Of a DNA stretch of 12,166 bases, positions 1-12,166 are shown piece by piece. Numbering within the stretch: position 1 is the stretch's first letter; every line of letters begins with the position of its first letter. The notes below the pieces were generated by a model. That model ran no database searches. It had not been told where the DNA came from and saw nothing but the letters and a program-made list of their open reading frames with translations. Position numbers and translations under genes: made by a program. This stretch comes from a virus: the UHGV virus genome UHGV-0286708. One strand, given 5' to 3'.

Positions 1-371
1 GCGCAGACGATGACGTCACTGCCCGGCTGTATGCGCGAGGTTACCGACTGCGGCCTGAGTTTTTTAAATGGCGGAAAATCGTGTTGAGGCCAACGCCCAT
101 AATGCGGGCGGTTGCCCGGCATCCAACGCCATTCATGGCCATATCAATGATTTTCTGGTGCGTACCGGGTTGAGAAGCGGTGTAACTGAACTGCAGTTGC
201 CATGTTTTACGGCAGTGAGAGCAGAGATAGCGCTGATGTCCGGCAGTGCTTTTGCCGTTACGCACCACCCCGTCAGTAGCTGAACAGGAGGGACAACTGA
301 TAGAAATAGAAGCCACTGGAGAACCTCAAAAACACCATCATACACTAAATCAGTAAGTTGGTATCATCACC
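1..371 (-). mobile_element. IS1 insertion sequence, partial (cut by window start); left inverted repeat ends near 371
   Basis: Reverse complement of 357-371 reads GGTGATGATACCAAC, close to the IS1 terminal inverted repeat GGTGATGCTGCCAAC. The insA ORF lies just inside it, and insB would lie beyond the window start. Confidence 0.9.
41..316 (-). CDS. insA: IS1 InsA (transposition regulator, zinc-finger/HTH protein), 91 aa
   Basis: Translation [43 protein letters not shown]... is the recognisable IS1 InsA sequence with its CxxC...CxxC motif. Confidence 0.9.
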
Positions 372-445
372 TCAAAGCCATTAGGTTCGATTTGAATATA
401 AACAATTTTCATTAAACTGATATTTATCACCAAATTCCGAGCCAA

Positions 446-493
446 AAGATTACATCATATTTAAATGTAATCTTAAATAACTCAGTGTATAAT
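446..493 (+). promoter_or_regulatory. Candidate promoter/operator upstream of the 210-aa ORF: 10-bp inverted repeat followed by a TATAAT -10 hexamer
   Basis: aagattacat (446-455) and atgtaatctt (465-474) are perfect reverse complements with a 9-nt spacer. A perfect TATAAT sits at 488-493, about 70 bp upstream of the GTG start at 565. The -35 is weak. Confidence 0.3.
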
Positions 494-564
494 TCAATTG
501 CACAATAAGAATTAACAGTGTATTTTTAGCCAGGAAATATGATTTCTAAAACGGAGATTTAAAA

Positions 565-1197
565 GTGAAAATATATTACGCATTAAAAAGAATAGCGTAT
601 ATTGCAGGTGCTTTATCTATTGGTTGCGGCTCACTACCAATGATTTTCAGCAAAACACCCGCTCTTCAATACTGGGTGCTCGGGGCTTTTTTAATTTTCA
701 TTGGGTATTGCGTATCAAAGCTTGAGTTCGATAAGTCTAAATACATCAAGTACCTAAATGAAAAGAACGATGGGATTTATATTTATTATGCAAAATTTGG
801 TGGCGAAGAGCACGAAATAAAAATCAACACAAAAAACAAAACAATCGAACTAAAGTCAGGGAAAAATTCCGCCACACTAAACTTTGATAACATCAAATCA
901 TGGAGATATAACGTATCTGGCATTAGCAAGGTTAATGTCATTGGTTCCACTAACAGCGTAATGGGTAATTTCACAGCTTTATCTCAAGCCAGTGCAATCA
1001 ACAACCAAGCAGGGTACAGCGCGTGGGATAATAATGGATTCTTTATTCACACAGATGCATTGGCAAATCCTGTCTGGCATATAAAGATAATACCAAAAGA
1101 TGTCGCAATAAACCTTAAGTCTGACAAGTTTTGGAAAAGTGTCGCTGGCGAATGCGAAGTCTGGATGAACGTAATGAACCGAGCCATTAATAAATAG
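565..1197 (+). CDS. Hypothetical membrane-anchored protein, 210 aa (two N-terminal hydrophobic helices, then a soluble domain); AT-rich cargo
   Basis: Intact ORF with GTG start and GGAG 8 nt upstream. Hydrophobic stretches [19 protein letters not shown] and [15 protein letters not shown]. Codon usage is AT-rich, unlike the neighbouring IS1 and phage genes. I recognise no family. Confidence 0.55.
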
Positions 1198-1441
1198 AAG
1201 TCTTACTGTTGAGGCCAGCGCCCGTGATACGGGCACTGGCACAGCACCCAATACCATTCACGGGCATATCAATGATTTTCTGGTGCGCACCGGGCTGAGA
1301 GGCGGTGTAAGTGAACTGTAGTTGCCATGTTTTACGGCAATGAGAGCAGAGATAGCGCTGATGTCCGGCAGTGCTTTTGCCATTACGCACCACCCCGTCA
1401 GTAGCTGAACAGGAGGGACAGCTGATATAAACAGAAGCCAC
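1187..1441 (-). pseudogene. insA: Truncated insA of a divergent IS1 copy (C-terminus replaced by unrelated sequence)
   Basis: Translation [51 protein letters not shown]... is InsA-like, but it ends in ...GLNSKTSIY where homology to the first copy stops (about 1207). Confidence 0.75.
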
Positions 1442-1497
1442 TGGAGCACCTCAAAAACACCATCATACACTAAATCAGTAAGTTGGCAGCATCACCA
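1207..1497 (-). mobile_element. IS1 remnant (about 290 bp: left inverted repeat plus partial insA), same orientation as the first copy
   Basis: Reverse complement of 1483-1497 is GGTGATGCTGCCAAC, the IS1 terminal inverted repeat. Homology to the first copy runs from about 1207 to 1497 with many substitutions, so it is a different IS1 isoform, truncated. Confidence 0.8.
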
Positions 1498-1541: not shown

Positions 1542-2294
1542 ATGGATTATTTTAGTATTGACTTTTTTATCGGTGAGCTCAAAGTAAATTTTAGTCATAA
1601 GGTTGGTAGGCTTTCGACCGCACTACGGGCAGCTAATTGGCAAATCGATATTAGATATTTGAATGGTAATGACCCCGATATTGGTAAAGAAGTGGATAGT
1701 CTTGAGAAAAACGCATTTAAACGAGTGGAGTTTGAGAGGAAGCAGTATCGGATGCTTTGTGATGATGAAGATCCAATTCAGGAAAGGGTCAATAAGATGA
1801 TCTATTTGTCGGCAATAAACTGGTATTTAGGATTATGTATCGTAGCGTCAGATTGGCGTGATGGTGTGAAGATGTTACTTAAATCTACCGAGCTTCTTGA
1901 TATGTGTCATGGCATTATTGAACATGAAATATGGCAACAGATAGAAACAGAAAAAAAAGGACGTGCTATTAATGGGGGTACAGCAAAAGCTGCTATTTAT
2001 GCTCCTCTAAAAGCTGAAATTATTCGTTTGTTGTATTGCAAGAGACCTATAGATGGTTGGAAAAGCAAGAAGGAGGCTTTGAGGGCTATTGATGAAGATA
2101 TATACAAATTTATTCAAAAACATGGCTATCCCGTTTCTCCTGACGCCAAAAAAGAGGGGGAGGCAGAACTTTATTCACGAATCCCCCGCCTGATTGAAGA
2201 TTGGTCAAGAGATGATGCAATAATTAAGGTTGTTTTTGGCTCAACAGTTAAGCACAAAAATAGCGCCCCTAAGGACGCAGAACAGAATAGATAG
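1542..2294 (+). CDS. Hypothetical protein, 250 aa, AT-rich cargo ORF convergent with the adjacent integrase
   Basis: Intact 250-aa ORF with no obvious transmembrane segment. It sits immediately 3' of the P4-type integrase gene, a classic cargo position in integrative islands. I recognise no family. Confidence 0.55.
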   Translation: MDYFSIDFFIGELKVNFSHKVGRLSTALRAANWQIDIRYLNGNDPDIGKEVDSLEKNAFKRVEFERKQYRMLCDDEDPIQERVNKMIYLSAINWYLGLCIVASDWRDGVKMLLKSTELLDMCHGIIEHEIWQQIETEKKGRAINGGTAKAAIYAPLKAEIIRLLYCKRPIDGWKSKKEALRAIDEDIYKFIQKHGYPVSPDAKKEGEAELYSRIPRLIEDWSRDDAIIKVVFGSTVKHKNSAPKDAEQNR

Positions 2295-2335: not shown

Positions 2336-3577
2336 TTAACCGACAAGGAGTAGTCCATGACTACCATTGTCTATTATGTTACCGTCATGTGCTGCTTTTA
2401 TAAAATCAGCCCACCATTGCATCATAGGGCGGCGTTGCTCAAGATAATCACTGCGGTTATATGCGCGACGTACTTCATTCTTGTCCACATGAGCCAATGC
2501 AGCCTCAATGACATCAGGCGGAAACCCTTGCTCATTGAGTGCCGTACTAGCGATAGAACGTAAACCGTGTGATACGAGTACGCCTCCTAAACCTGCACGC
2601 TTGAGTGCTGCATTCACTGTTTGGCTGTTCATTGGTTGGGTTGGTTTGATGCGACTGGGAAAGATAAATTCTCGGCCACCACTGAGTGACTTCATCATTT
2701 CCAGAATAGAGAGAGCCTCATCGGATAGTGGAATCGTATGGTCCCGGTTCATCTTCATTCGAGCTGCAGGAATTTTCCATTCGTTAGCATCAAAATCGAT
2801 CTCATCCCATCGAGCTTCAGCAGCTTCGGCAGGGCGGGTAATGGTGAGGAGTTGCCACATGAACAGGCACCTTGTGGACAAGCTGATACTTGCCGTACGC
2901 ATAGTCTGCATTAGCTGTGGAAGTTGATCCGGGCGGATGCTTGGCATGTTTTTCTTTTGCGGTTTCTCGAATGCTTTCCCGATGTTTACGCTGGGAACCG
3001 CATCAATCAAGCCCGTGTTCTGCGCATAAATCATGACTTCGTTAATACGCTGACAAAGACGGCGAACAGTCTCTAATGCACCTCTGGCCTGAACCGGCTG
3101 AACGGCTTTAACCAGAGTATGAGCCTTAATCTCAGTGACACTGATATCACCGATTGTTGGGAAAACATCTCTCTCAAGTGAGCGCCATATATCGTCGGCA
3201 TAGTCCTCTGTTACGCTGGCTTTCTTCACATTCCACCAACGCTCAGCAACTAACAGGAAAGTGTTGGTTTTAGCCTCTTGAGAATTTCTCACCAGTTCTT
3301 TCTGATGTTCCTGAGGATCAATGTCTTTCGCCAATAAAACTTTAGATTCGGCTCTGAGTTTACGTGCATCAGAAAGCGAGACGGCAGGGTAGGCCCCAAA
3401 GCTCTGTTTGGTTCGCTGCTTGGTCAGAGGCCGATAGTAACGGAATTGCCAGAGCTTACTGCCGCTGGACTTGATTAACAGAGTAAGCCCGTCACCATCA
3501 TACAGCTGGTAATCGGCATCTTTAGGTTTGGCGGCTTTGATTTCCGTATCGGTTAACGGCTTGGTTTTTCTTGCCAT
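2336..3577 (-). CDS. intA: P4/CP4-57-type tyrosine integrase (IntA/SlpA-like), about 413 aa
   Basis: Probable start is MARKTKPLTDTEIKAAKPKDADYQLYDGDGL... at 3577, with GGAG upstream; the listed ORF extends 11 codons further 5'. It has the integrase arm-binding N-terminus and C-terminal catalytic motifs (RPAEAAEARWDEIDF, HGLRSIAST, Y in RRAYNRSDY). It lies about 205 bp downstream of a tmRNA 3'-end copy in the same orientation, as in the E. coli ssrA-intA arrangement. Confidence 0.9.
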   Translation of the reverse strand: MARKTKPLTDTEIKAAKPKDADYQLYDGDGLTLLIKSSGSKLWQFRYYRPLTKQRTKQSFGAYPAVSLSDARKLRAESKVLLAKDIDPQEHQKELVRNSQEAKTNTFLLVAERWWNVKKASVTEDYADDIWRSLERDVFPTIGDISVTEIKAHTLVKAVQPVQARGALETVRRLCQRINEVMIYAQNTGLIDAVPSVNIGKAFEKPQKKNMPSIRPDQLPQLMQTMRTASISLSTRCLFMWQLLTITRPAEAAEARWDEIDFDANEWKIPAARMKMNRDHTIPLSDEALSILEMMKSLSGGREFIFPSRIKPTQPMNSQTVNAALKRAGLGGVLVSHGLRSIASTALNEQGFPPDVIEAALAHVDKNEVRRAYNRSDYLEQRRPMMQWWADFIKAAHDGNIIDNGSHGLLLVG

Positions 3578-3597
3578 GGGGAGTCTCCATGCGTTTA

Positions 3598-3633
3598 GGC
3601 CCAACGAAAACAATAGAACTTTTCGTTGGGCCT
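3598..3633. promoter_or_regulatory. Perfect 13-bp inverted repeat (hairpin) about 20 nt upstream of the integrase start
   Basis: GGCCCAACGAAAA (3598-3610) and TTTTCGTTGGGCC (3621-3633) are exact reverse complements with a 10-nt loop. Confidence 0.4.
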
Positions 3634-3704
3634 ATCAATGGGCCTAAAAGGTTCGGATTTAATTAGTTCTCTTCAGACTTCGCGGGACAAATTGAGGGCA
3701 CAAA

Positions 3705-3737
3705 AAAGCCCGCAGGGCTTGTGCCATGCGGGCTTTT
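3705..3737 (-). terminator. Intrinsic (bidirectional-type) terminator hairpin downstream of the tmRNA 3'-end copy
   Basis: AAAAGCCCGCA ... TGCGGGCTTTT forms a GC-rich 11-bp stem flanked by an A-run and a T-run. Position fits the native terminator of ssrA. Confidence 0.6.
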
Positions 3738-3780
3738 AGGACTTCATCGGATGACTCTGGTAATCACCGATGGAGAATTT

Positions 3781-3825
3781 TGGTGGAGCTGGCGGGAGTT
3801 GAACCCGCGTCCGAAATTCCTACAT
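3781..3825 (-). other. ssrA: About 45-nt copy of the tmRNA (ssrA) 3' end: attachment-site repeat separating the two integrated elements; not an intact RNA gene
   Basis: Reverse complement reads ATGTAGGAATTTCGGACGCGGGTTCAACTCCCGCCAGCTCCACCA, the acceptor/T-arm end of enterobacterial tmRNA including CCA. Sequence beyond 3825 is AT-rich and unrelated to tmRNA, so only the 3' segment is present. Confidence 0.75.
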
Positions 3826-3938
3826 ACTATTTTTACTGTAATAAAAACAGTGAATTACGTTTAAAAACAGTCCTTTAGTGTTATTTGCTGTTTATACGTT
3901 TTATGCATTTTTAATGCTCTGCCGCCACTTTGTCGCCA

Positions 3939-4997
3939 TTAAATGCGCTGGTCATTTGATATAGGTAAAATGCTTGTAAAGAGTTTTTCGTCATATAGTG
4001 CGTACTCAGGTATGTAATCACCATTGCTTTTATCTGTTTGGAAGATAGAGGGGTCCTTGTCGATTAAAACATATAACTCAATGAGAATATTTCTTAGTCC
4101 CCAAAGCATTTGCTTTAGTTGTTTTTCATCATTGAATGAGATGCTTATGGCTTCCGTATCTGGTTTTGGATGTTCAGGAATTATTGAGAAAAGATGTTCT
4201 TGGTATTTATAATCAATTCCAAGTAGTCTGCAAAGTTGAATTATGTTTGATTCTATGAGTTGTAGGCTAACTAATTGGTTGTCATGATTTTTGTTGTTGG
4301 ACTTAAGCGATTTGTTTATGTTGTTATAATGATTTGTTGTTTTTCGAATAAAATCTTCTTCGACAGCGGTGCTATAGCCATTATCAATGGAAGATGATTT
4401 GAAAATATTTTTATAAAGAGTGTACGGATGAACTACAGATAGTTCAATACTGTCTATATCACTAGTTTCTTTATTTAATCTTGATAATTTAAATGTTGGT
4501 AGTGTTTGGAATATATCAGCGAAGCTTTTCAGATGTGAGTAATATGAATCAGTGGTGTTTTTTTCAATAACAAGATTGATTTGCTTTTGTGTTTTTTCTA
4601 TTTGGTTCTCTGTTTGTGTGGTTCTATGTATATTGTTGACGATTGCTGCAAGAGGTACCGAAGAAGCTAAAATAAATAATGGCAATTTAGAGATGTCAAG
4701 AAAGTGATTAAAACCGTCTGATGTGAAATTTAAATCGTGGCCTTTCCAAGCCCAGAGGCCATACAAAACAAACATTTTTAACGGTACGATAATAGATGCT
4801 ATGAATAATGGTTGTTTTAATAGATTTTTCTCATTTAGTTTAAGCCAATTGAAGCAATAGAACATAAGTATCAATCCAAGTATATAAGCTACACTAAAGA
4901 AGATAAAAACTCTTGGACGATTAGTGTATATCAATGCTAAGGCAATTAAGATAGTAATGATTGCGTAGGTAATGATTAATGTGAGCTTTTTTTTCAT
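3939..4997 (-). CDS. Hypothetical membrane protein (about 352 aa from MKKKL start; 366 aa if the upstream ATG at 5039 is used), N-terminal 3-4 transmembrane helices plus C-terminal soluble domain; AT-rich cargo at the prophage edge
   Basis: Intact ORF. Hydrophobic helices LTLIITYAIITILIALALIY, VFIFFSVAYILGLILMFYCF, PLFIASIIVPLKMFVLYGLWAW and LPLFILASSVPLAAIV. The start at 4997 lies 4 nt after the int stop codon, on the same strand as cI and int. Strongly AT-rich. I recognise no family. Confidence 0.6.
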   Translation of the reverse strand: MKKKLTLIITYAIITILIALALIYTNRPRVFIFFSVAYILGLILMFYCFNWLKLNEKNLLKQPLFIASIIVPLKMFVLYGLWAWKGHDLNFTSDGFNHFLDISKLPLFILASSVPLAAIVNNIHRTTQTENQIEKTQKQINLVIEKNTTDSYYSHLKSFADIFQTLPTFKLSRLNKETSDIDSIELSVVHPYTLYKNIFKSSSIDNGYSTAVEEDFIRKTTNHYNNINKSLKSNNKNHDNQLVSLQLIESNIIQLCRLLGIDYKYQEHLFSIIPEHPKPDTEAISISFNDEKQLKQMLWGLRNILIELYVLIDKDPSIFQTDKSNGDYIPEYALYDEKLFTSILPISNDQRI

Positions 4998-5001
4998 TCT
5001 A

Positions 5002-6018
5002 TTAAACCAAATTATGTAAAGGATTTTTTGTAACAGCATCTTCTAGATGGTCTGGAGAAAAGTGTGCGTAAACCATCGTCATTTTTATATCGGCATGGCC
5101 CAATATTTCTTTAAGGACAAGAATATTCCCGCCATTCATCATAAAATGACTGGCGAATGTATGACGCAGCACGTGGGTGCATTGGCCCTCTGGTAACTCG
5201 ATGCCTGCTCGCTTTACTGCTCGTTCAAAGGCTTTTCTGCACGGTGTGAATAGTTTCCCTCTGTTCTTGGGGAGTTCATCATACAGATTTTGAGATATCG
5301 GCACGGTACGATTTTTCTTACCTTTTGTCTTGGTATAGGTGATCCGGTATTTTGATAACTGATGGCCCTGCAAGTTTTCTGCTTCACTCCATCGCGCACC
5401 AGTAGCTAGGCATATTTTTGCAATCATTAGTAGGCTGGTGTTTTGAGATTCGGCGCAGGCATTAAGCAGGCGTTTGATTTCGTCCGTGGAAAGAAAAGCC
5501 AATTCACCTTCAGCAATTTTGAAGGTTGGAAGCCCTGCCAGCGGGTTTGGTGCGGACCAGTGCCCTAGTTTTTTCAATGTACCGAACACCGATGACAGGT
5601 TACGCTGCTCAAGATTAACTGTGCGAGGTTTAACGGGTGACATGAACGAGCCGTCTTCATTTTGGACCTCCCCCTTTAATCTGGCTTCCCGATATTTTGT
5701 GAAATCACCTGCTGTCAGCTCAGAGGCGATGGGATCGCCTAGACCATTACAGATAATTCTAAGTTTCGCCATCAGGCGTTTGGGGTCTGCGAGTGTTTGA
5801 CCATATAGGGAATACCACTGCTCAATCACTTCTGATAATCGCCGCCGATCTTCCTTCTCACCAAGCCATGGCTTTTTGTTTACTTCGTCCATGGTGAAGC
5901 TTTCAAATGCAATGGCTTCGCCTTTGGTAGCAAATTGCTTACGCACGCGCTTACCATTGCGTCCATTGGGATAGCACTCACACAACCATTTTCCGTTCGG
6001 CTGTTTTCTGATGGTCAT
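5002..6018 (-). CDS. int: P2/186-family phage integrase (tyrosine recombinase), 338 aa
   Basis: N-terminus ...PNGKWLCECYPNGRNGKRVRKQF... and C-terminal motifs (LATGARWSEA, HVLRHTFASHFMMNGGNILVLKEILGH, MVYAHF) are typical of P2-type Int. Its start is 3 nt after the cI stop. Confidence 0.9.
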   Translation of the reverse strand: MTIRKQPNGKWLCECYPNGRNGKRVRKQFATKGEAIAFESFTMDEVNKKPWLGEKEDRRRLSEVIEQWYSLYGQTLADPKRLMAKLRIICNGLGDPIASELTAGDFTKYREARLKGEVQNEDGSFMSPVKPRTVNLEQRNLSSVFGTLKKLGHWSAPNPLAGLPTFKIAEGELAFLSTDEIKRLLNACAESQNTSLLMIAKICLATGARWSEAENLQGHQLSKYRITYTKTKGKKNRTVPISQNLYDELPKNRGKLFTPCRKAFERAVKRAGIELPEGQCTHVLRHTFASHFMMNGGNILVLKEILGHADIKMTMVYAHFSPDHLEDAVTKNPLHNLV

Positions 6019-6021
6019 AAG

Positions 6022-6660
6022 TTAGAGGTTCTTGATTACTTTGACTGCACGTCCTACGACTTCCACATCATCTACAGAACATTCAAATGAAGTGTCATCT
6101 TGGTTAACTACTATTTTGTTTCCGGGTATGCGCGCAATTTTGACGATGCTTTTAACTCCGTCCATATCGACTAACCAGAAGCCATTACTGACTTGTTTAA
6201 CGGACGTATCCACTACAAAGCTATTATTAGCTGTTTTAACAAATAAAGCGTTGGATGAGTCACCATCGAGCAGGCTGCTATCAAGAAGAATTTCATCACT
6301 TGCCTGCAGTTCGCCGTTCTTCAGTTCAACACGTTTGATGCTAGGAGCAACGATCTTAGAAAGTGGTCTTACAGTGACGGGAGGTTCATTTTTGAGATTT
6401 GTTTCTTCGTTCTCACACGCATACATATCTCCTTGACCAGTAGCCAGCCATAGAAGGGAAACTCCTGTTTCAAGGGCACATTGAATTACCCATTCGGCAG
6501 GAAAGCTATCCCTTAAGTATCTGTTAGCCATAGTGCTTTTGGATACCTCCAGATGTTCGCAGAGCTGCTGTCGTGAACTGAAGTTGTAAGCCTTAATAAG
6601 CCTGTTAATTGCATCGCGCCCACCACTATCATTTCCCGCCTTGATCAAACTCATAATCAA
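6022..6660 (-). CDS. cI: Phage CI-type immunity repressor (186-like), about 210 aa
   Basis: N-terminal HTH region ...LCEHLEVSKSTMANRYLRDSFPAEWVIQCALETGVSLLWLATGQG is typical of CI-type repressors, with a C-terminal oligomerisation-type domain. It is divergent from the apl/cII operon and tightly coupled to int. Confidence 0.8.
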   Translation of the reverse strand: MIMSLIKAGNDSGGRDAINRLIKAYNFSSRQQLCEHLEVSKSTMANRYLRDSFPAEWVIQCALETGVSLLWLATGQGDMYACENEETNLKNEPPVTVRPLSKIVAPSIKRVELKNGELQASDEILLDSSLLDGDSSNALFVKTANNSFVVDTSVKQVSNGFWLVDMDGVKSIVKIARIPGNKIVVNQDDTSFECSVDDVEVVGRAVKVIKNL

Positions 6661-6665
6661 ACCCC

Positions 6666-6694
6666 TTGACGTATATAAAAAGTGATCCTAATAT
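6666..6694 (+). promoter_or_regulatory. Near-consensus sigma-70 promoter directing the rightward early (lytic) operon (pR/Pe equivalent)
   Basis: -35 TTGACG (6666-6671), 17-nt spacer, -10 TAATAT (6689-6694). It starts 6 bp from the cI start codon and is about 75 bp upstream of the apl-like ORF. Confidence 0.55.
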
Positions 6695-6770
6695 CCATTT
6701 ATGGTTTGAAAAGCAAAACCAAACCACATAAAACAAGATAAAACGAAACCAAACTAAGAGATACTGCACT

Positions 6771-7013
6771 ATGAGTACTGATATTTCAATTCGTGTACCA
6801 AAAGAGATGGCTACGCCTGCAGAGTTCGCGGAATGGGAAGGTATCTCCCGCGGCTCCGTGTATCAAAAAATTCACCATGGTCAGCTTGCTAAATACATGG
6901 TCAAGAAAGAAAAAAACAAAGGCCGCGTAAGCCTGCGTTATTTAATGTACAAAACCGATCAGGTCCGTGAATCCCTCGGTCATTCCAACTTCCGCGTCAT
7001 TGTTGGTAAGTAA
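6771..7013 (+). CDS. Apl/Cox-like small DNA-binding protein (excisionase/transcriptional regulator), 80 aa
   Basis: First gene of the rightward operon, opposite cI. Small basic protein with an HTH-like segment (FAEWEGISRGSVYQKIHHGQL). The call is positional, by analogy with 186 apl and P2 cox. Confidence 0.55.
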   Translation: MSTDISIRVPKEMATPAEFAEWEGISRGSVYQKIHHGQLAKYMVKKEKNKGRVSLRYLMYKTDQVRESLGHSNFRVIVGK

Positions 7014-7045
7014 GTTCAATTATGAGAACTTTCTAAGGGGGTAGC

Positions 7046-7555
7046 ATGTTTGATTATAAGATTTCCAAACACCCGCATTTTGATGAAGCCTGTAGAGCTT
7101 TTGCACTTCGTCACAATATGGCGAAGCTGGCAGAACGTGCAGGAATGAATGTCCAGACTCTGCGAAACAAACTCAACCCAGATCAACCGCATCAGCTCAA
7201 TGCGCCAGAAATCTGGCTGCTTACCGATCTGACTGAAGATTCAACGCTGATAGATGGTTTTCTGGCACAGATTCACTGCCTGCCATGTGTACCGATTAAT
7301 GAGGTAGCAAAAGAGAAACTGCCGCATTACGTCATGAGTGCAACCGCAGAGATCGGGCGTGTTGCTGCAGGTGCGGTATCTGGCAATGTAAAAACCAGTG
7401 CAGGTCGTCGTGATGCTATCAGCAGCATTAACTCTGTAACACGACTGATGGCGCTGGCTGCTGTTTCATTGCAGGCCCGTTTACAGGCTAACCCGGCGAT
7501 GGCGAGTGCAGTTGATACCATGACTGGCCTTGGTGCTTCATTCGGTTTGCTGTGA
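7046..7555 (+). CDS. cII: Phage CII-like regulatory protein (186 CII family), 169 aa
   Basis: Same length class as coliphage 186 CII. HTH segment HNMAKLAERAGMNVQTLRNKLNP, position immediately after apl, and GGGG-containing RBS upstream. Confidence 0.75.
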   Translation: MFDYKISKHPHFDEACRAFALRHNMAKLAERAGMNVQTLRNKLNPDQPHQLNAPEIWLLTDLTEDSTLIDGFLAQIHCLPCVPINEVAKEKLPHYVMSATAEIGRVAAGAVSGNVKTSAGRRDAISSINSVTRLMALAAVSLQARLQANPAMASAVDTMTGLGASFGLL

Positions 7556-7562
7556 GGTGCTT

Positions 7563-7763
7563 ATGCTTACGAAAGAACCATCATTTGCATCGCTGCTGGT
7601 TAAACAAAGCCCGGCAATGCACTACGGTCACGGCTGGATCATGGGTGAGGATGGTAAACGCTGGCATCCGTGCCGTTCACAAGATGAATTGCTGGCAGAA
7701 CTATCTACGAAAAAACGGGGGAACAAATGGCTATTGAAGGCGCTGCGGCGACTGTTCCATTAA
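7563..7763 (+). CDS. Small hypothetical early protein, about 66 aa (position of 186 fil-type gene)
   Basis: Likely start MLTKEPSFASLL... with GAGG upstream. Its 3' end overlaps the next gene start by 37 nt. No family recognised. Confidence 0.4.
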   Translation: MLTKEPSFASLLVKQSPAMHYGHGWIMGEDGKRWHPCRSQDELLAELSTKKRGNKWLLKALRRLFH

Positions 7764-8068
7764 GCCCCGGTCAACGCCTGAATGGACTTAATCACATTGC
7801 GGAGTTAAGGGCGAAAGTTTTTGGTCTGAATATTGAGTCAGAGCTTGAGCGGTTTATTAAAGATATGCGTGATCCACGCGATATTAATAGCGAACAAAAT
7901 AAACGGGCACTGGCTGCCATATTCTTTATGGCAAAAATTCCAGCTGAACGTCACAGCATCAGCATTAATGAGCTGACCACTGACGAAAAGCGGGAGTTGA
8001 TTAAAGCAATGAATCATTTTCGTGCAGTAGTGAGCTTATTCCCCAGACGACTAACCATGCCGAATTAA
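7727..8068 (+). CDS. Hypothetical phage early protein, 113 aa
   Basis: Intact ORF with GGGGGA RBS about 7 nt upstream. Lies in the P2/186 early-operon region between cII and the TraR-like gene. Confidence 0.5.
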   Translation: MAIEGAAATVPLSPGQRLNGLNHIAELRAKVFGLNIESELERFIKDMRDPRDINSEQNKRALAAIFFMAKIPAERHSISINELTTDEKRELIKAMNHFRAVVSLFPRRLTMPN

Positions 8069-8135
8069 CAAACTAATGAACTTCATGGCGTAAACACGCC
8101 GGGTATCCCTTTACCTAAATTCAGGAGAATTGATT

Positions 8136-8369
8136 ATGCGTAATATTGAAACCCTCACGACTAAAACCGGACCGGATGATGCAGGGCTTAATATTTTACT
8201 GACAGAGGCTCGTCTGGAAGAACGCCGGGCAAGAGCTGAAGCAATGGCAGCTCGCCTTGATAGCCTTGCGTGCCATATCACATCCCGCCAGCTAAACCAC
8301 GTTGAAGCGGCTGAACTGCTGCGTGTGGCAGCTGAAGCAATCCAGAACGAAGCGCAGGAGATCCACTAA
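8136..8369 (+). CDS. Hypothetical small phage protein, about 77 aa (helical, Ala/Glu/Arg-rich)
   Basis: ATG at 8136 with AGGAG 8 nt upstream; the listed ORF begins at an in-frame TTG at 8130. Its stop overlaps the next start (TAATG). Confidence 0.5.
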   Translation: MRNIETLTTKTGPDDAGLNILLTEARLEERRARAEAMAARLDSLACHITSRQLNHVEAAELLRVAAEAIQNEAQEIH

Positions 8370-8596
8370 TGGCTGATGCAATGGATCTCGTACAGCAGCG
8401 CGTTGAAGAAGAACGCCAGCGTCATATCCGTACTGCCCGTGCCAAAACGCCGGGCGTGTCCCGCGTGCTTTGCATTGAGTGTGAAGCGCCAATTCCGCCA
8501 GCACGCCGCCGTGCCATTCCGGGTGTGCAGCTTTGCATTACCTGTCAGGAAATCGCAGAGCTGAAAGGCAAACATTACAACGGAGGTGCTGTATGA
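8369..8596 (+). CDS. TraR/DksA-family C4 zinc-finger protein, 75 aa
   Basis: CIECEAPIP...CITCQ gives the four-cysteine CxxC-N17-CxxC arrangement typical of phage TraR-like proteins. AGGAG RBS upstream. Confidence 0.75.
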   Translation: MADAMDLVQQRVEEERQRHIRTARAKTPGVSRVLCIECEAPIPPARRRAIPGVQLCITCQEIAELKGKHYNGGAV

Positions 8597-9450
8597 GCAC
8601 CATCCTGAAATGGGCGGGAAATAAAACCGCCATTATGTCCGAACTGAAAAAGCATCTTCCTGCTGGCCCGCGACTGGTTGAACCTTTCGCGGGTTCCTGT
8701 GCAGTGATGATGGAGACGGAGTACCCCAGCTATCTTGTTGCGGATATTAATCCTGATTTAATCAACCTCTATAAAAAGGTTGCTGCTGATTGTGAATCAT
8801 TTATATCTCGCGCCAGAGTTTTATTTGAGATCGCAAACAGGGAGGTAGCTTATTACAACATAAGGCAGGAGTTTAATTACTCAACTGAAATTACTGATTT
8901 CATGAAAGCGGTATATTTCCTGTATCTCAATCGTCACGGTTACCGTGGTTTATGTCGCTATAACAAGAGCGGGCATTTCAACATTCCCTACGGTAATTAT
9001 AAAAATCCGTATTTCCCTGAAAAAGAAATTCGCGCATTTGCAGAAAAAGCCCAGCGAGCAACGTTTATCTGCGCCAGCTTTGATGAAACGCTGGCGATGT
9101 TGAAGGCGGGGGATGTGGTGTATTGCGATCCGCCGTATGACGGTACGTTTTCCGGCTATCACACTGATGGTTTCACTGAAGATGACCAGTATCACCTGGC
9201 ATCCGTTCTTGAACATCGGTCATCAGAAGGACATCCGGTCATTGTTTCTAACAGTGACACATCCCTGATCCGTTCGCTGTATCGCAATTTTACTCACCAC
9301 TATATCAAGGTAAAACGCAGCATCGGTGTGGCAGCTGGCGAGGGTAAATCAGCAACAGAAATCATTGCTGTTTCCGGGCCGCGCTGCTGGTTGGGATTTG
9401 ATTATTCGCGTGGCGTGGATAGTTCTGCCGTGTACGGAGTGCGTGCATGA
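8593..9450 (+). CDS. dam: Dam-type N6-adenine DNA methyltransferase, about 285 aa, phage-encoded orphan methylase
   Basis: From [11 protein letters not shown] it parallels E. coli Dam: [39 protein letters not shown] and the catalytic DPPY ([10 protein letters not shown]). ATGA overlap with the TraR-like stop. Confidence 0.9.
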
Positions 9451-11861
9451 GCCATGCTGATATGAACAACTGCAGCGGCTTTAACGAGGCCGCCGCAGCA
9501 TTCTCATGGAACAGCCCGAAAAAGGCTATTAACCCTTATCTGGACCCGGCGGAAGTTGCGCCGGTTTCTGCGCTTTCAAACCTGATCACTCTGTACGCTG
9601 CCGATAACGAGCAGGAACAACTGCGCCGCGAGGCACTGAGTGATCAGGTCTGGGAGCGTTATTTCTTTAATGAATCCCTTGATCCTGTCCAACGCGAAAT
9701 GGAGCAGGATAAGCTCATTAGCCGGGCAAAGCTGGCGCATGAGCAGCAGCGTTTTAATCCGGACATGGTCATACTGGCGGACGTTAAAGCCCAGCCCTCC
9801 CATATCAGCAAGCCGCTGATGCAACGTATTGAATACTTCAGCAGCCTGGGCAGGCCAAAGGCTTATTCCCGCTATTTGCGTGAAACGATTAAGCCATGTC
9901 TGGAACGACTGGAGCATGTACGCGACAGTCAGCTATCCACTTCTTTTCGCTTTATGGCAAGCCATGAAGGGCTGGACGGCCTGCTGATCCTGCCTGAAAT
10001 GAGTCAGGATCAGGTGAAACGCCTGTCTACTCTTGTCGCTGCGCATATGAGCATGTGTCTTGATGCCGCTTGTGGTGATTTGTACGCCACCGATGATGTT
10101 AAGCCAGAAGAAATCCGCAAGACATGGGAAAAGGTGGCAGCAGAAACCCTGCGACTGGATGTCATACCGCCTGCGTTTGAGCAACTCCGCCGGAAAAGAA
10201 ACCGCCGTAAACCCGTACCCTATGAACTCATTCCGGGTTCGCTGGCGCGTATGTTGTGCGCCGACTGGTGGTATCGGAAATTATGGAAGATGCGTTGCGA
10301 ATGGCGGGAAGAGCAGTTGCGTGCTGTTTGCCTGGTCAGCAAAAAAGCATCTCCCTATGTCAGCTATGAAGCCGTGATGCATAAACGTGAGCAGCGCCGT
10401 AAGTCGCTGGAGTTTTTCCGTTCTCATGAACTAGTGAACGAAGACGGCGACACGCTGGATATGGAGGACGTGGTAAACGCCAGTAGTAGCAACCCGGCGC
10501 ATCGCCGCAATGAGATGATGGCATGTGTTAAAGGTCTGGAGCTTATCGCGGAAATGCGCGGTGACTGCGCCGTTTTCTACACCATCACCTGTCCGTCACG
10601 TTTCCATTCCACGCTAAATAACGGCAGGCCCAACCCAACCTGGACAAATGCGACGGTAAGACAAAGCAGTGATTATCTGGTCGGCATGTTTGCTGCATTT
10701 CGTAAGGCGATGTACAAAGCCGGATTGCGCTGGTATGGCGTGCGGGTGGCTGAGCCGCATCATGACGGTACAGTTCACTGGCACCTGTTGTGTTTTATGC
10801 GCAAAAAAGATCGCCGCGCCATTACTGCTTTGTTGCGTAAGTTTGCCATTCGTGAAGACCGCGAGGAGCTGGGTAATAACACAGGACCACGCTTTAAGTC
10901 TGAGCTGATAAACCCGCGCAAAGGTACGCCAACAAGCTACATCGCGAAATACATCAGTAAGAACATTGACGGGCGTGGTCTGGCTGGCGAGATCAGCAAG
11001 GAAACGGGTAAATCCCTGCGTGATAACGCTGAATACGTTAATGCCTGGGCGTCTCTTCATCGTGTTCAGCAATTCCGCTTCTTTGGCATTCCGGGGCGTC
11101 AGGCTTACCGTGAACTGCGATTGCTGGCTGGTCAGGCGGCAAGGCAACAGGGGGACAAAAAAGCAGGTGCGGCGGTACTGGATAACCCACGCCTTGATGC
11201 CATCCTGGCTGCTGCTGATGCTGGTTGTTTTGCCACCTACATCATGAAGCAGGGCGGCGTACTGGTTCCCCGCAAATATCACCTCATCAGAACCGCTTAT
11301 GAAATCAACGAAGAGCCGACCGCCTATGGCGATCACGGCATTCGTATTTATGGCATCTGGTCACCCATTGCAGAGGGCAAGATCTGCACTCATGCAGTGA
11401 AGTGGAAAATGGTTCGTAAGGCCGTTGACGTTCAGGAGGCGGCAGCCGACCAGGGCGCTTGCGCCCCTTGGACTCGTGGCAATAACTGTCCCCTTGCCGA
11501 AAATTTGAACCAACAGGAGAAAGATAAATCAGCTGATGGGGACACCAGAACGGATATTACCCGCATGGATGACAAGGCGTTGCACGATTACCTGCACAGT
11601 ATGAGCAAAAAAGAGTGCCGGGAACTGGCAGCAAGGTTACGCCTGGTGAAACCGAAACGGCGTAAAGACTACAAACAGCGAATTACAGACCATCAGCGAC
11701 TGCAGCTCGTGTATGAGCTGAAGTCCAGAGGATTTGATGGCAGCGAGAAAGAGGTCGATTTACTCCTTCGCGGAGGCAGTATTCCGTCAGGAGCAGGCCT
11801 GCGTATCTTCTATCGGAACCAGCGTTTGCAGGAAGATGATAAGTGGCGGAACCTGTATTAA
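9447..11861 (+). CDS. A: Replication initiation protein gpA (P2/186 gene A, rolling-circle HUH endonuclease), 804 aa
   Basis: Large ORF in the gene-A position, coupled to dam by an ATGA overlap. It has an HUH-like motif ([10 protein letters not shown]) and paired tyrosines ([10 protein letters not shown]), as expected for the gpA nickase. Confidence 0.85.
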
Positions 11862-11954
11862 TTACGCTGGTTAACAATTCGTGCTCTTAATAATACCAGG
11901 CATATCAGGCTGATAAGCGTAAAAAAAACGTTTTACATCAGTAAGATTATTATA

Positions 11955-11974
11955 TACTGTAAATATAAACAGTG
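11955..11974. promoter_or_regulatory. LexA-box-like palindrome (SOS operator) upstream of the next ORF
   Basis: TACTGTAAATATAAACAGTG has the form CTGT-N8-ACAG with an AT-rich spacer, matching the LexA consensus TACTGT(AT)4ACAGTA at about 17 of 20 positions. A TTTACA hexamer (11932-11937) lies 17 nt upstream. Confidence 0.5.
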
Positions 11975-12015
11975 GTTATACATACAGTATTGCGTGTGGT
12001 GTCATAGGAGGAAAG

Positions 12016-12166
12016 ATGCAGGACTATTTTTTGGAGTCTTTGAAGCTCCAGCGCATTGATTTTTTTCTTAAGCTTGTAGCGGCTAGTGAGTGTAGTGATG
12101 AAGAGAAGGGGCTGGCTCTGCAGTGGGTTTCTGAATTGACTGATGAACTCATGGCAAAAATCAGAA
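12016..12166 (+). CDS. 5' part of an ORF running off the window (at least 50 aa); hypothetical, possibly SOS-regulated (position analogous to 186 tum and the P2-family cargo region after gene A)
   Basis: ATG at 12016 with GGAGG 4-9 nt upstream; open to the window end (MQDYFLESLKLQRIDFFLKLVAASECSDEEKGLALQWVSELTDELMAKIR...). Absent from the ORF track only because no stop is reached. Confidence 0.45.
   Translation, partial: MQDYFLESLKLQRIDFFLKLVAASECSDEEKGLALQWVSELTDELMAKIR

Follow-up and report, generated by a model that had tools for sequence, protein, structure and literature searches.

The first 1,496 nucleotides of the window, i.e., of the whole 12,166-nucleotide stretch of DNA that was analyzed, are a preassembled module from a lineage of small ColE1/Rop plasmids of Enterobacterales. 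Its parts are a full IS1 (copy A), an 835-bp AT-rich segment that holds a DUF4755 gene and, in direct orientation to copy A, what is left of a divergent IS1, a stump of 290 bp (remnant B). To judge from the sequences of these arms, the module was probably imported into an Escherichia coli integrase island by homologous recombination with a resident IS1.

Copy A, on the minus strand, is cut by the left edge of the window, in which its IRL-proximal 371 nt (1 to 371) are visible; in the plasmids described below it is a complete 768-bp element. Its IRL ends at 371 (GGTGATGATACC..., minus strand), and its insA gene (41 to 316, minus strand, 91 aa) is intact. The AT-rich upstream region of the ORF (372 to 564, GC content of 0.26) is followed by the intact DUF4755 gene (565 to 1197, plus strand, 210 aa), whose GTG start codon lies 8 nt downstream of a GGAG motif (553 to 556) and whose DNA is 100% identical to that of the copy on ColE1-type plasmids. 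The GC content of the segment from 372 to 1206 is 0.347, versus 0.467 for the plasmid backbone. A 9-bp spacer, AAGTCTTAC (1198 to 1206), separates the stop codon from the truncation point of remnant B, which runs on the minus strand from IS1 nt 290 to nt 1 (1207 to 1496), with its IRL end at 1496. With nt 1 to 290 alone, remnant B lacks the second end and the insB' of a full 768-bp IS1. It retains a truncated InsA of 84 aa (1187 to 1441, minus strand) with the Zn ribbon and a partial HTH domain, while InsA of copy A matches both Zn_ribbon_InsA and HTH_Tnp_IS1 of Pfam (E values of 1e-20 to 3e-30 for the domains of the two copies). The truncated insA frame is convergent with the DUF4755 gene, which it overlaps by 11 bp at the stop codon, and the stump could yield antisense transcription or a residual InsA-like repressor.

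Over the 290 bp that they share, the two IS1 parts are 91.4% identical. Copy A is 98.7% identical to E. coli IS1B, and remnant B is 94.5% identical to E. coli IS1A. An earlier note, made from the letters of this DNA alone, had described a 210-aa AT-rich ORF with two N-terminal helices and a soluble domain, located just past the inverted-repeat end of one IS1 and next to a remnant of another isoform in the same orientation. The composition and hydrophobic segments of the ORF, its position relative to the IRL of copy A and the difference between the isoforms were all borne out, and alignment to reference isoforms, as the note had proposed, placed the truncation point of B at IS1 nt 290. The remnant does follow the ORF, but the exact contact claimed between them does not exist, as the spacer intervenes and the remnant spans 1207 to 1496 rather than 1197 to 1497.

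The 210-aa ORF is a real, conserved gene and a bona fide member of the DUF4755 family. Residues 62 to 205 match Pfam DUF4755 (PF15947) over profile positions 1 to 127 of 129, with a score of 47.5 bits against a gathering cutoff of 27 (E = 2.1e-12), and all 40 aligned relatives match the same family. The identical plasmid protein is named "DUF4755 domain-containing protein" in RefSeq. Homologues with 48 to 57% identity are of equal length and end at the same C-terminal residue, which rules out that the ORF was truncated by remnant B. A random AT-rich ORF was likewise rejected in view of the conserved family, the native C terminus and the confident fold. Thus, of the two findings that the earlier note had named as fatal to its reading, the lack of conservation is contradicted by these homologues, and for the other, a characterized IS1-associated passenger gene, no mention of DUF4755 was found in the literature searched.

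DUF4755 is a small family: when 1.84 billion representatives were searched exhaustively with a profile, 71 clusters at 50% identity emerged (E ≤ 1e-3), two of which (P0036 and P0076) are multidomain Big_7 proteins without a Pfam DUF4755 match. A relative was present on 7 of 72,556 sequenced plasmids, and tblastn detected none in phage genomes. No match to the 210-aa protein was found in NCBIfam or PHROGs, none of the PADLOC defense HMMs matched at E ≤ 1, and sequences of solved structures in the PDB included no relative.

Profile and structure searches, which the earlier note had called for, thus identified a DUF4755 member with two N-terminal helices and a modeled PH-like domain. Hydrophobic segments were found at residues 10 to 29 and 31 to 55, and such segments are present at the N termini of all 40 aligned members. 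The distribution of Lys and Arg residues indicates that the topology is probably N-in/C-in, with a cytoplasmic domain. An AlphaFold model based on an 8-sequence alignment was unusable (pLDDT of 53), and the 40-sequence alignment was used instead (pLDDT of 89.6, pTM of 0.78). The resulting model comprises a helical hairpin, a β-sheet domain, a long inserted helix (residues 132 to 156) and a C-terminal helix (residues 187 to 209). It matches eukaryotic PH, PTB and FERM domains with modest scores, with nothing significant in a viral fold library; the domain, though confidently modeled, is a putative PH-like one. The nearly invariant residues of the family (L96, F107, P169, W171, I173 and W200) are hydrophobic, and no conserved polar residues were found in the family. 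This pattern argues for a binding or scaffold module rather than for an enzyme, and we regard the protein as a membrane-anchored, nonenzymatic binding module with a putative PH fold.

Membrane-anchored PH-domain proteins occur in bacteria, e.g., YdbS and YdbT of Bacillus subtilis (Pfam bPH_2). As modeled, DUF4755 proteins resemble them in their two N-terminal transmembrane helices, putative PH-like β-sandwich and C-terminal helix cap, a likeness in architecture only, as no sequence-level link between DUF4755 and the bPH families was detected. They also differ by the additional long helix, 132 to 156, inserted in the domain.

The upstream region contains a perfect 10-bp inverted repeat (446 to 455 and 465 to 474) with a 9-nt loop; an inverted repeat of that length arose in 30 of 2,000 shuffles (1.5%) of the 193-bp region. 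A TATAAT hexamer at 488 to 493 is the sole copy between positions 1 and 1300. A consensus scan of the plus strand upstream of the ORF returned no full sigma-70 match and no good -35 element, and neither the inverted repeat nor the TATAAT is conserved upstream of homologues. Both features are therefore present as had been noted, but the regulated promoter of its own that they had suggested is a candidate lacking a good -35 element, made of elements that are not conserved among homologues.

We then turn to where the module comes from. Even a low-stringency search of 5,426 complete E. coli genomes gave no match to the segment from 372 to 1200. This segment is 99.9 to 100% identical to four plasmids of 5.3 to 7.0 kb from Enterobacter roggenkampii, Enterobacter hormaechei, Klebsiella variicola and Serratia marcescens, all of which are nonmobilizable and encode Rop (ColE1 type). 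From 1 to 1496, copy A and its junction with the ORF, the spacer, and remnant B with its point of truncation all align to the plasmids, at 98 to 99% identity and without indels. Positions 187 to 1381 are identical to the plasmids, all mismatches being confined to 1 to 186 or 1382 to 1493. The exact protein is present in 894 blocks of the assembly collection.

The truncation point of remnant B and the spacer are base for base the same in all plasmids and relatives examined, from several genera. Since these junctions are shared so widely, the insertion and deletion that created them were not local to the present genome, and the truncated-IS1 architecture was built long ago on a plasmid. The view of the earlier note that a cargo gene lies between different IS1 isoforms and that IS1 shaped the locus thus stands, but its account of where and how this took place does not, given the same junctions on plasmids of several genera.

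On one metagenome scaffold (L008/L011), the IS1/DUF4755 plasmid occurs as a head-to-tail tandem repeat with two full units, which could be a plasmid multimer integrated via IS1 or an effect of assembly; the scaffold also bears genes resembling a heat resistance locus. In some relatives, IS1-A is interrupted at IS1 nt 63 to 68 by a 256-bp miniature element whose terminal inverted repeats read GGGGTCAGTTTGGA and whose insertion is accompanied by a 5-bp duplication, AAATA (L008, 9485 to 9739; L011; L014, 3168 to 3423). This element resembles a Tn3-derived miniature element (TIME).

On the other side of the junction, the integrase island associated with ssrA in E. coli strain TW01221 is matched at 100% identity from position 1497 as far as 3825, where the match stops. 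The first bases beyond the IRL of remnant B (1497 to 1505) read ACGGCTGCG. The island DNA includes a 250-aa ORF (1542 to 2294, plus strand), whose sole match is phrog_19089 (unknown function), intA (2336 to 3613) and a 45-bp 3' fragment of ssrA (3781 to 3825); the 1496/1497 junction is located 45 bp upstream of the 250-aa ORF. We compared related syntenic islands, as the earlier note had advised. The 10 other copies of the island carry QatABCD, a 266-aa ORF, a DEAD-box helicase gene, AlpA, the 250-aa ORF and intA, and none of them contains IS1. In all 10 related contigs examined, the 250-aa ORF adjoins intA in the ssrA Qat defense island, and in the window the IS1 module occupies the place upstream of that ORF that AlpA holds in canonical islands.

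The remainder of the window (3614 to 12166) shows that the ssrA site is occupied twice in tandem, first by the integrase island and then by a 186/P2-like prophage with genes for an integrase (int, 5002 to 6018), CI, CII/CP76, a Dam methylase and gpA. No tmRNA was detected within the window, which holds only the ssrA 3' fragment. Between this fragment and the prophage integrase gene lies a 366-aa ORF (3939 to 5039, minus strand; GC content of about 0.31) coding for N-terminal hydrophobic segments. Its single match is PHROG 17460 (unknown function), with none in Pfam or PADLOC. As it is missing from the related prophage in contig L033, it looks like a prophage-end moron.

The mode of import left clues in the arms, both of which proved to be hybrids when aligned with their plasmid counterparts and with IS1A and IS1B of E. 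coli. Remnant B is E. coli IS1A-like at IS1 nt 1 to 103 (informative sites 4 to 103) and of plasmid-B type at nt 209 to 290. Copy A is of plasmid-A type at nt 1 to 76 (informative sites from 10) and E. coli IS1B-like from nt 244. Each arm is thus of E. coli type on the outside and of plasmid type on the inside. In both arms, the switch falls where the isoforms share their longest identical stretches, of 105 and 167 bp, and the arms also contain SNPs private to the window, at IS1 nt 69 and 115 in B and at nt 186 in A.

Related contigs look like successive stages of integration. They include free plasmids, in which the backbone left of IS1-A reads ...GACATATGG; whole plasmids integrated between two IS1 copies (L005, L007 and L013); plasmids integrated via remnant B (L009 and L010); and compact IS1-A/ORF/stump units abutting unrelated DNA (the window, L012 and L014). 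The IRL of remnant B abuts five different nonplasmid sequences, always at the exact terminal IS1 base, and the isoform of the tip was switched at four of the five junctions; L010 alone retains the plasmid-type tip, GGCAGTATTACC. In L012, remnant B has a switch point of its own, at IS1 nt 55 to 64 (<10 bp). In L007, the left IS1 is of plasmid type from nt 1 to about nt 354 and of resident type beyond, and the right one is of resident type at nt 1 to 86 and of plasmid type from nt 244 at the latest. Replicative transposition yields two identical IS copies and a 9-bp duplication. We rejected such a cointegrate for L007, as no duplication is present in its flanks and the IS1 copies on either side are reciprocal hybrids; a homologous crossover with a conversion tract yields this pattern. 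A further IS1 copy, in L005 (14363 to 15074; 713 of 768 nt aligned), lacks the IRL tip, and its 5' part is similar to the divergent plasmid-B isoform. The isoform of the stump is thus present in longer IS1 copies as well, and IS1 in these contigs is extensively mosaic.

The mosaic arms, together with the intermediates found in other genomes, lead us to infer homologous recombination as the probable mechanism. The full IS1 and the 290-bp stump would serve as two directly oriented, portable homology arms, and a RecA-type crossover inside IS1 would join the plasmid to an IS1 already resident in E. coli next to the ssrA-intA island. Either a cointegrate would form, with a second crossover removing the plasmid backbone, or a double crossover would take place; by either route, the cargo would end up nested in a now-mosaic IS1. 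The window leaves out the left end of IS1-A and what lies beyond it, so that it fits a compact insertion and a whole-plasmid cointegrate alike. With an IRR (on copy A, beyond the window), an IRL (on remnant B) and a source of transposase, the unit could later move as a Tn9-like compound element. Three observations count against recombination: none of the complete E. coli genomes has a resident IS1 at the island site, the switch intervals would also fit a short-read assembler changing paths, and the plasmid-type tip at the new junction of L010 fits the action of transposase.

The first and third of these observations favor a Tn9-like compound transposon, a less probable reading to which we nevertheless give some weight. 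According to it, the transposase of copy A moved a unit of about 1.9 kb by means of IRR-A and the IRL of stump B, and the arms were gene-converted later. The outer ends are correctly inverted, insA is intact, and the IRL-B junction falls at the exact terminal base in every context. However, a search for target-site duplications, proposed by the earlier note, found none of 7 to 11 bp where both flanks are readable; it covered the flanks of IS1-A and of the composite in the plasmids and in L012, and the flanks in L007. In addition, both arms of the window are hybrid with internal switch points, and the tip isoform had been switched at most new junctions. The tip of L010 indicates that transposase-mediated events probably occur too.

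Quite improbably, a free plasmid and a separate island-side IS1 were joined by the assembler through shared IS1 k-mers. This would agree with a window that begins inside IS1 and with switch intervals that are isoform-identical over 105 and 167 bp. The IS1/island junction, moreover, was absent from the E. coli genomes, species-representative genomes and metagenomes searched; the ORF/stump junction had two matches in metagenomes, both plasmid-type only, and a search for exact copies of the 84-aa hybrid InsA led to no source contig. Against this, a free plasmid would offer the assembler a rival path of the same coverage, out of stump B and into the plasmid backbone, which makes an assembly chimera unlikely. 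The switch interval of L012 is too short for any k-mer repeat to account for it, the arms of the window bear private SNPs, and the integrated module is seen in long NCBI contigs (L007, 127 kb; L009, 411 kb). The scenario in which, in this genome, the ORF entered an old IS1 or its vicinity, the rest of that IS1 was deleted locally and IS1-A came independently can be set aside as extremely improbable: a truncated, divergent IS1 abutting the ORF fits it as far as anatomy alone goes, but the same truncation point, spacer and IS1-A/ORF junction occur in plasmids and contigs of several genera, and no other E. coli genome searched has the ORF segment.

Recombination between IS1 copies, the reading that we favor, can be set against two known systems. 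In structure, the module comes nearest to a Tn9-type compound transposon. Tn9 is an IS1-cat-IS1 unit with direct repeats, and such units live on plasmids and move to chromosomes. Like Tn9, the module has its cargo between two directly oriented IS1 parts, with one IRR and one IRL on the outside (IRR-A, seen in the plasmids, and IRL-B, in inverted orientation), and transposase is supplied by a flanking IS1, here copy A. In contrast with Tn9, one arm is reduced to 290 bp and belongs to a divergent isoform, a DUF gene takes the place of a resistance gene as cargo, no relative of the module examined has an 8- to 11-bp target-site duplication, and the mosaic arms point to homologous recombination and not to transposition.

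The second system is that of the IS26 translocatable units, or pseudo-compound transposons, reportedly described by Harmer, Moran and Hall in 2014. In both cases, cargo plus IS joins an existing copy of the same IS with no new target duplication, and copies of the IS in direct orientation delimit the arrays and cointegrates. Unlike the IS26 reaction, which is catalyzed by transposase at the IS ends, the switches in the module, whose IS1 belongs to a different family, occur inside the element and at variable points (nt 55 to 64, 103 to 209, 76 to 244 and about 355). Such internal, variable switch points suggest general homologous recombination. Overall, the locus holds a plasmid cargo gene of an ordinary kind, bracketed by IS1 and brought into an E. 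coli island, and the mechanism is one already known.

The neighborhoods of DUF4755 relatives vary. Some lie on small Mob plasmids, in certain cases with an upstream gene for a 176-aa lipoprotein or a YefM/YoeB pair, and others adjoin IS elements; no partner gene was conserved across the family in the neighborhoods examined. On the IncC plasmid pIA/C-KLUC (L051, 8382 to 13155) and in L015, a DUF4755 homologue (56% identity) and the 176-aa lipoprotein gene lie directly downstream of ISEcp1-blaKLUC-5-wbuC, and the same pair is found on the small Mob plasmids L016 to L020. A link with CBASS, which neighbors the pair in L015, was considered and rejected; the pair goes with the ISEcp1-blaKLUC-5-wbuC segment, as on pIA/C-KLUC, and CBASS looks incidental. 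Nor was support found for the idea that IS1-A destroyed an upstream partner gene: the lipoprotein gene precedes the closer homologues, but there is no trace of it in the window or the plasmids.

As to what the protein does, analogy with other single membrane proteins of small plasmids tentatively suggests an envelope-associated protective, immunity or exclusion-type accessory factor, a doubtful assignment. It is equally possible that the gene is a neutral hitchhiker on IS1. A bolder and still less probable proposal is that DUF4755 represents a new class of single-gene, membrane-anchored PH-fold accessory factors on ColE1-type plasmids, of which one allele would have been spread by an IS1 "knock in," here into a defense island. 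If this were true, DUF4755 proteins might act, e.g., in phage or conjugation exclusion or in immunity to an envelope-acting toxin.

The locus does not challenge present understanding. It offers a base-level example of IS1 copies serving as portable homology that carries the cargo of small plasmids into chromosomes and large plasmids, and public assemblies display the free plasmid, the cointegrate with its reciprocal hybrid IS1 and the compact nested unit. As one and the same DUF4755 allele recurs in contexts from Enterobacter, Klebsiella, Serratia and E. coli, it makes a cheap candidate for phenotype screens.
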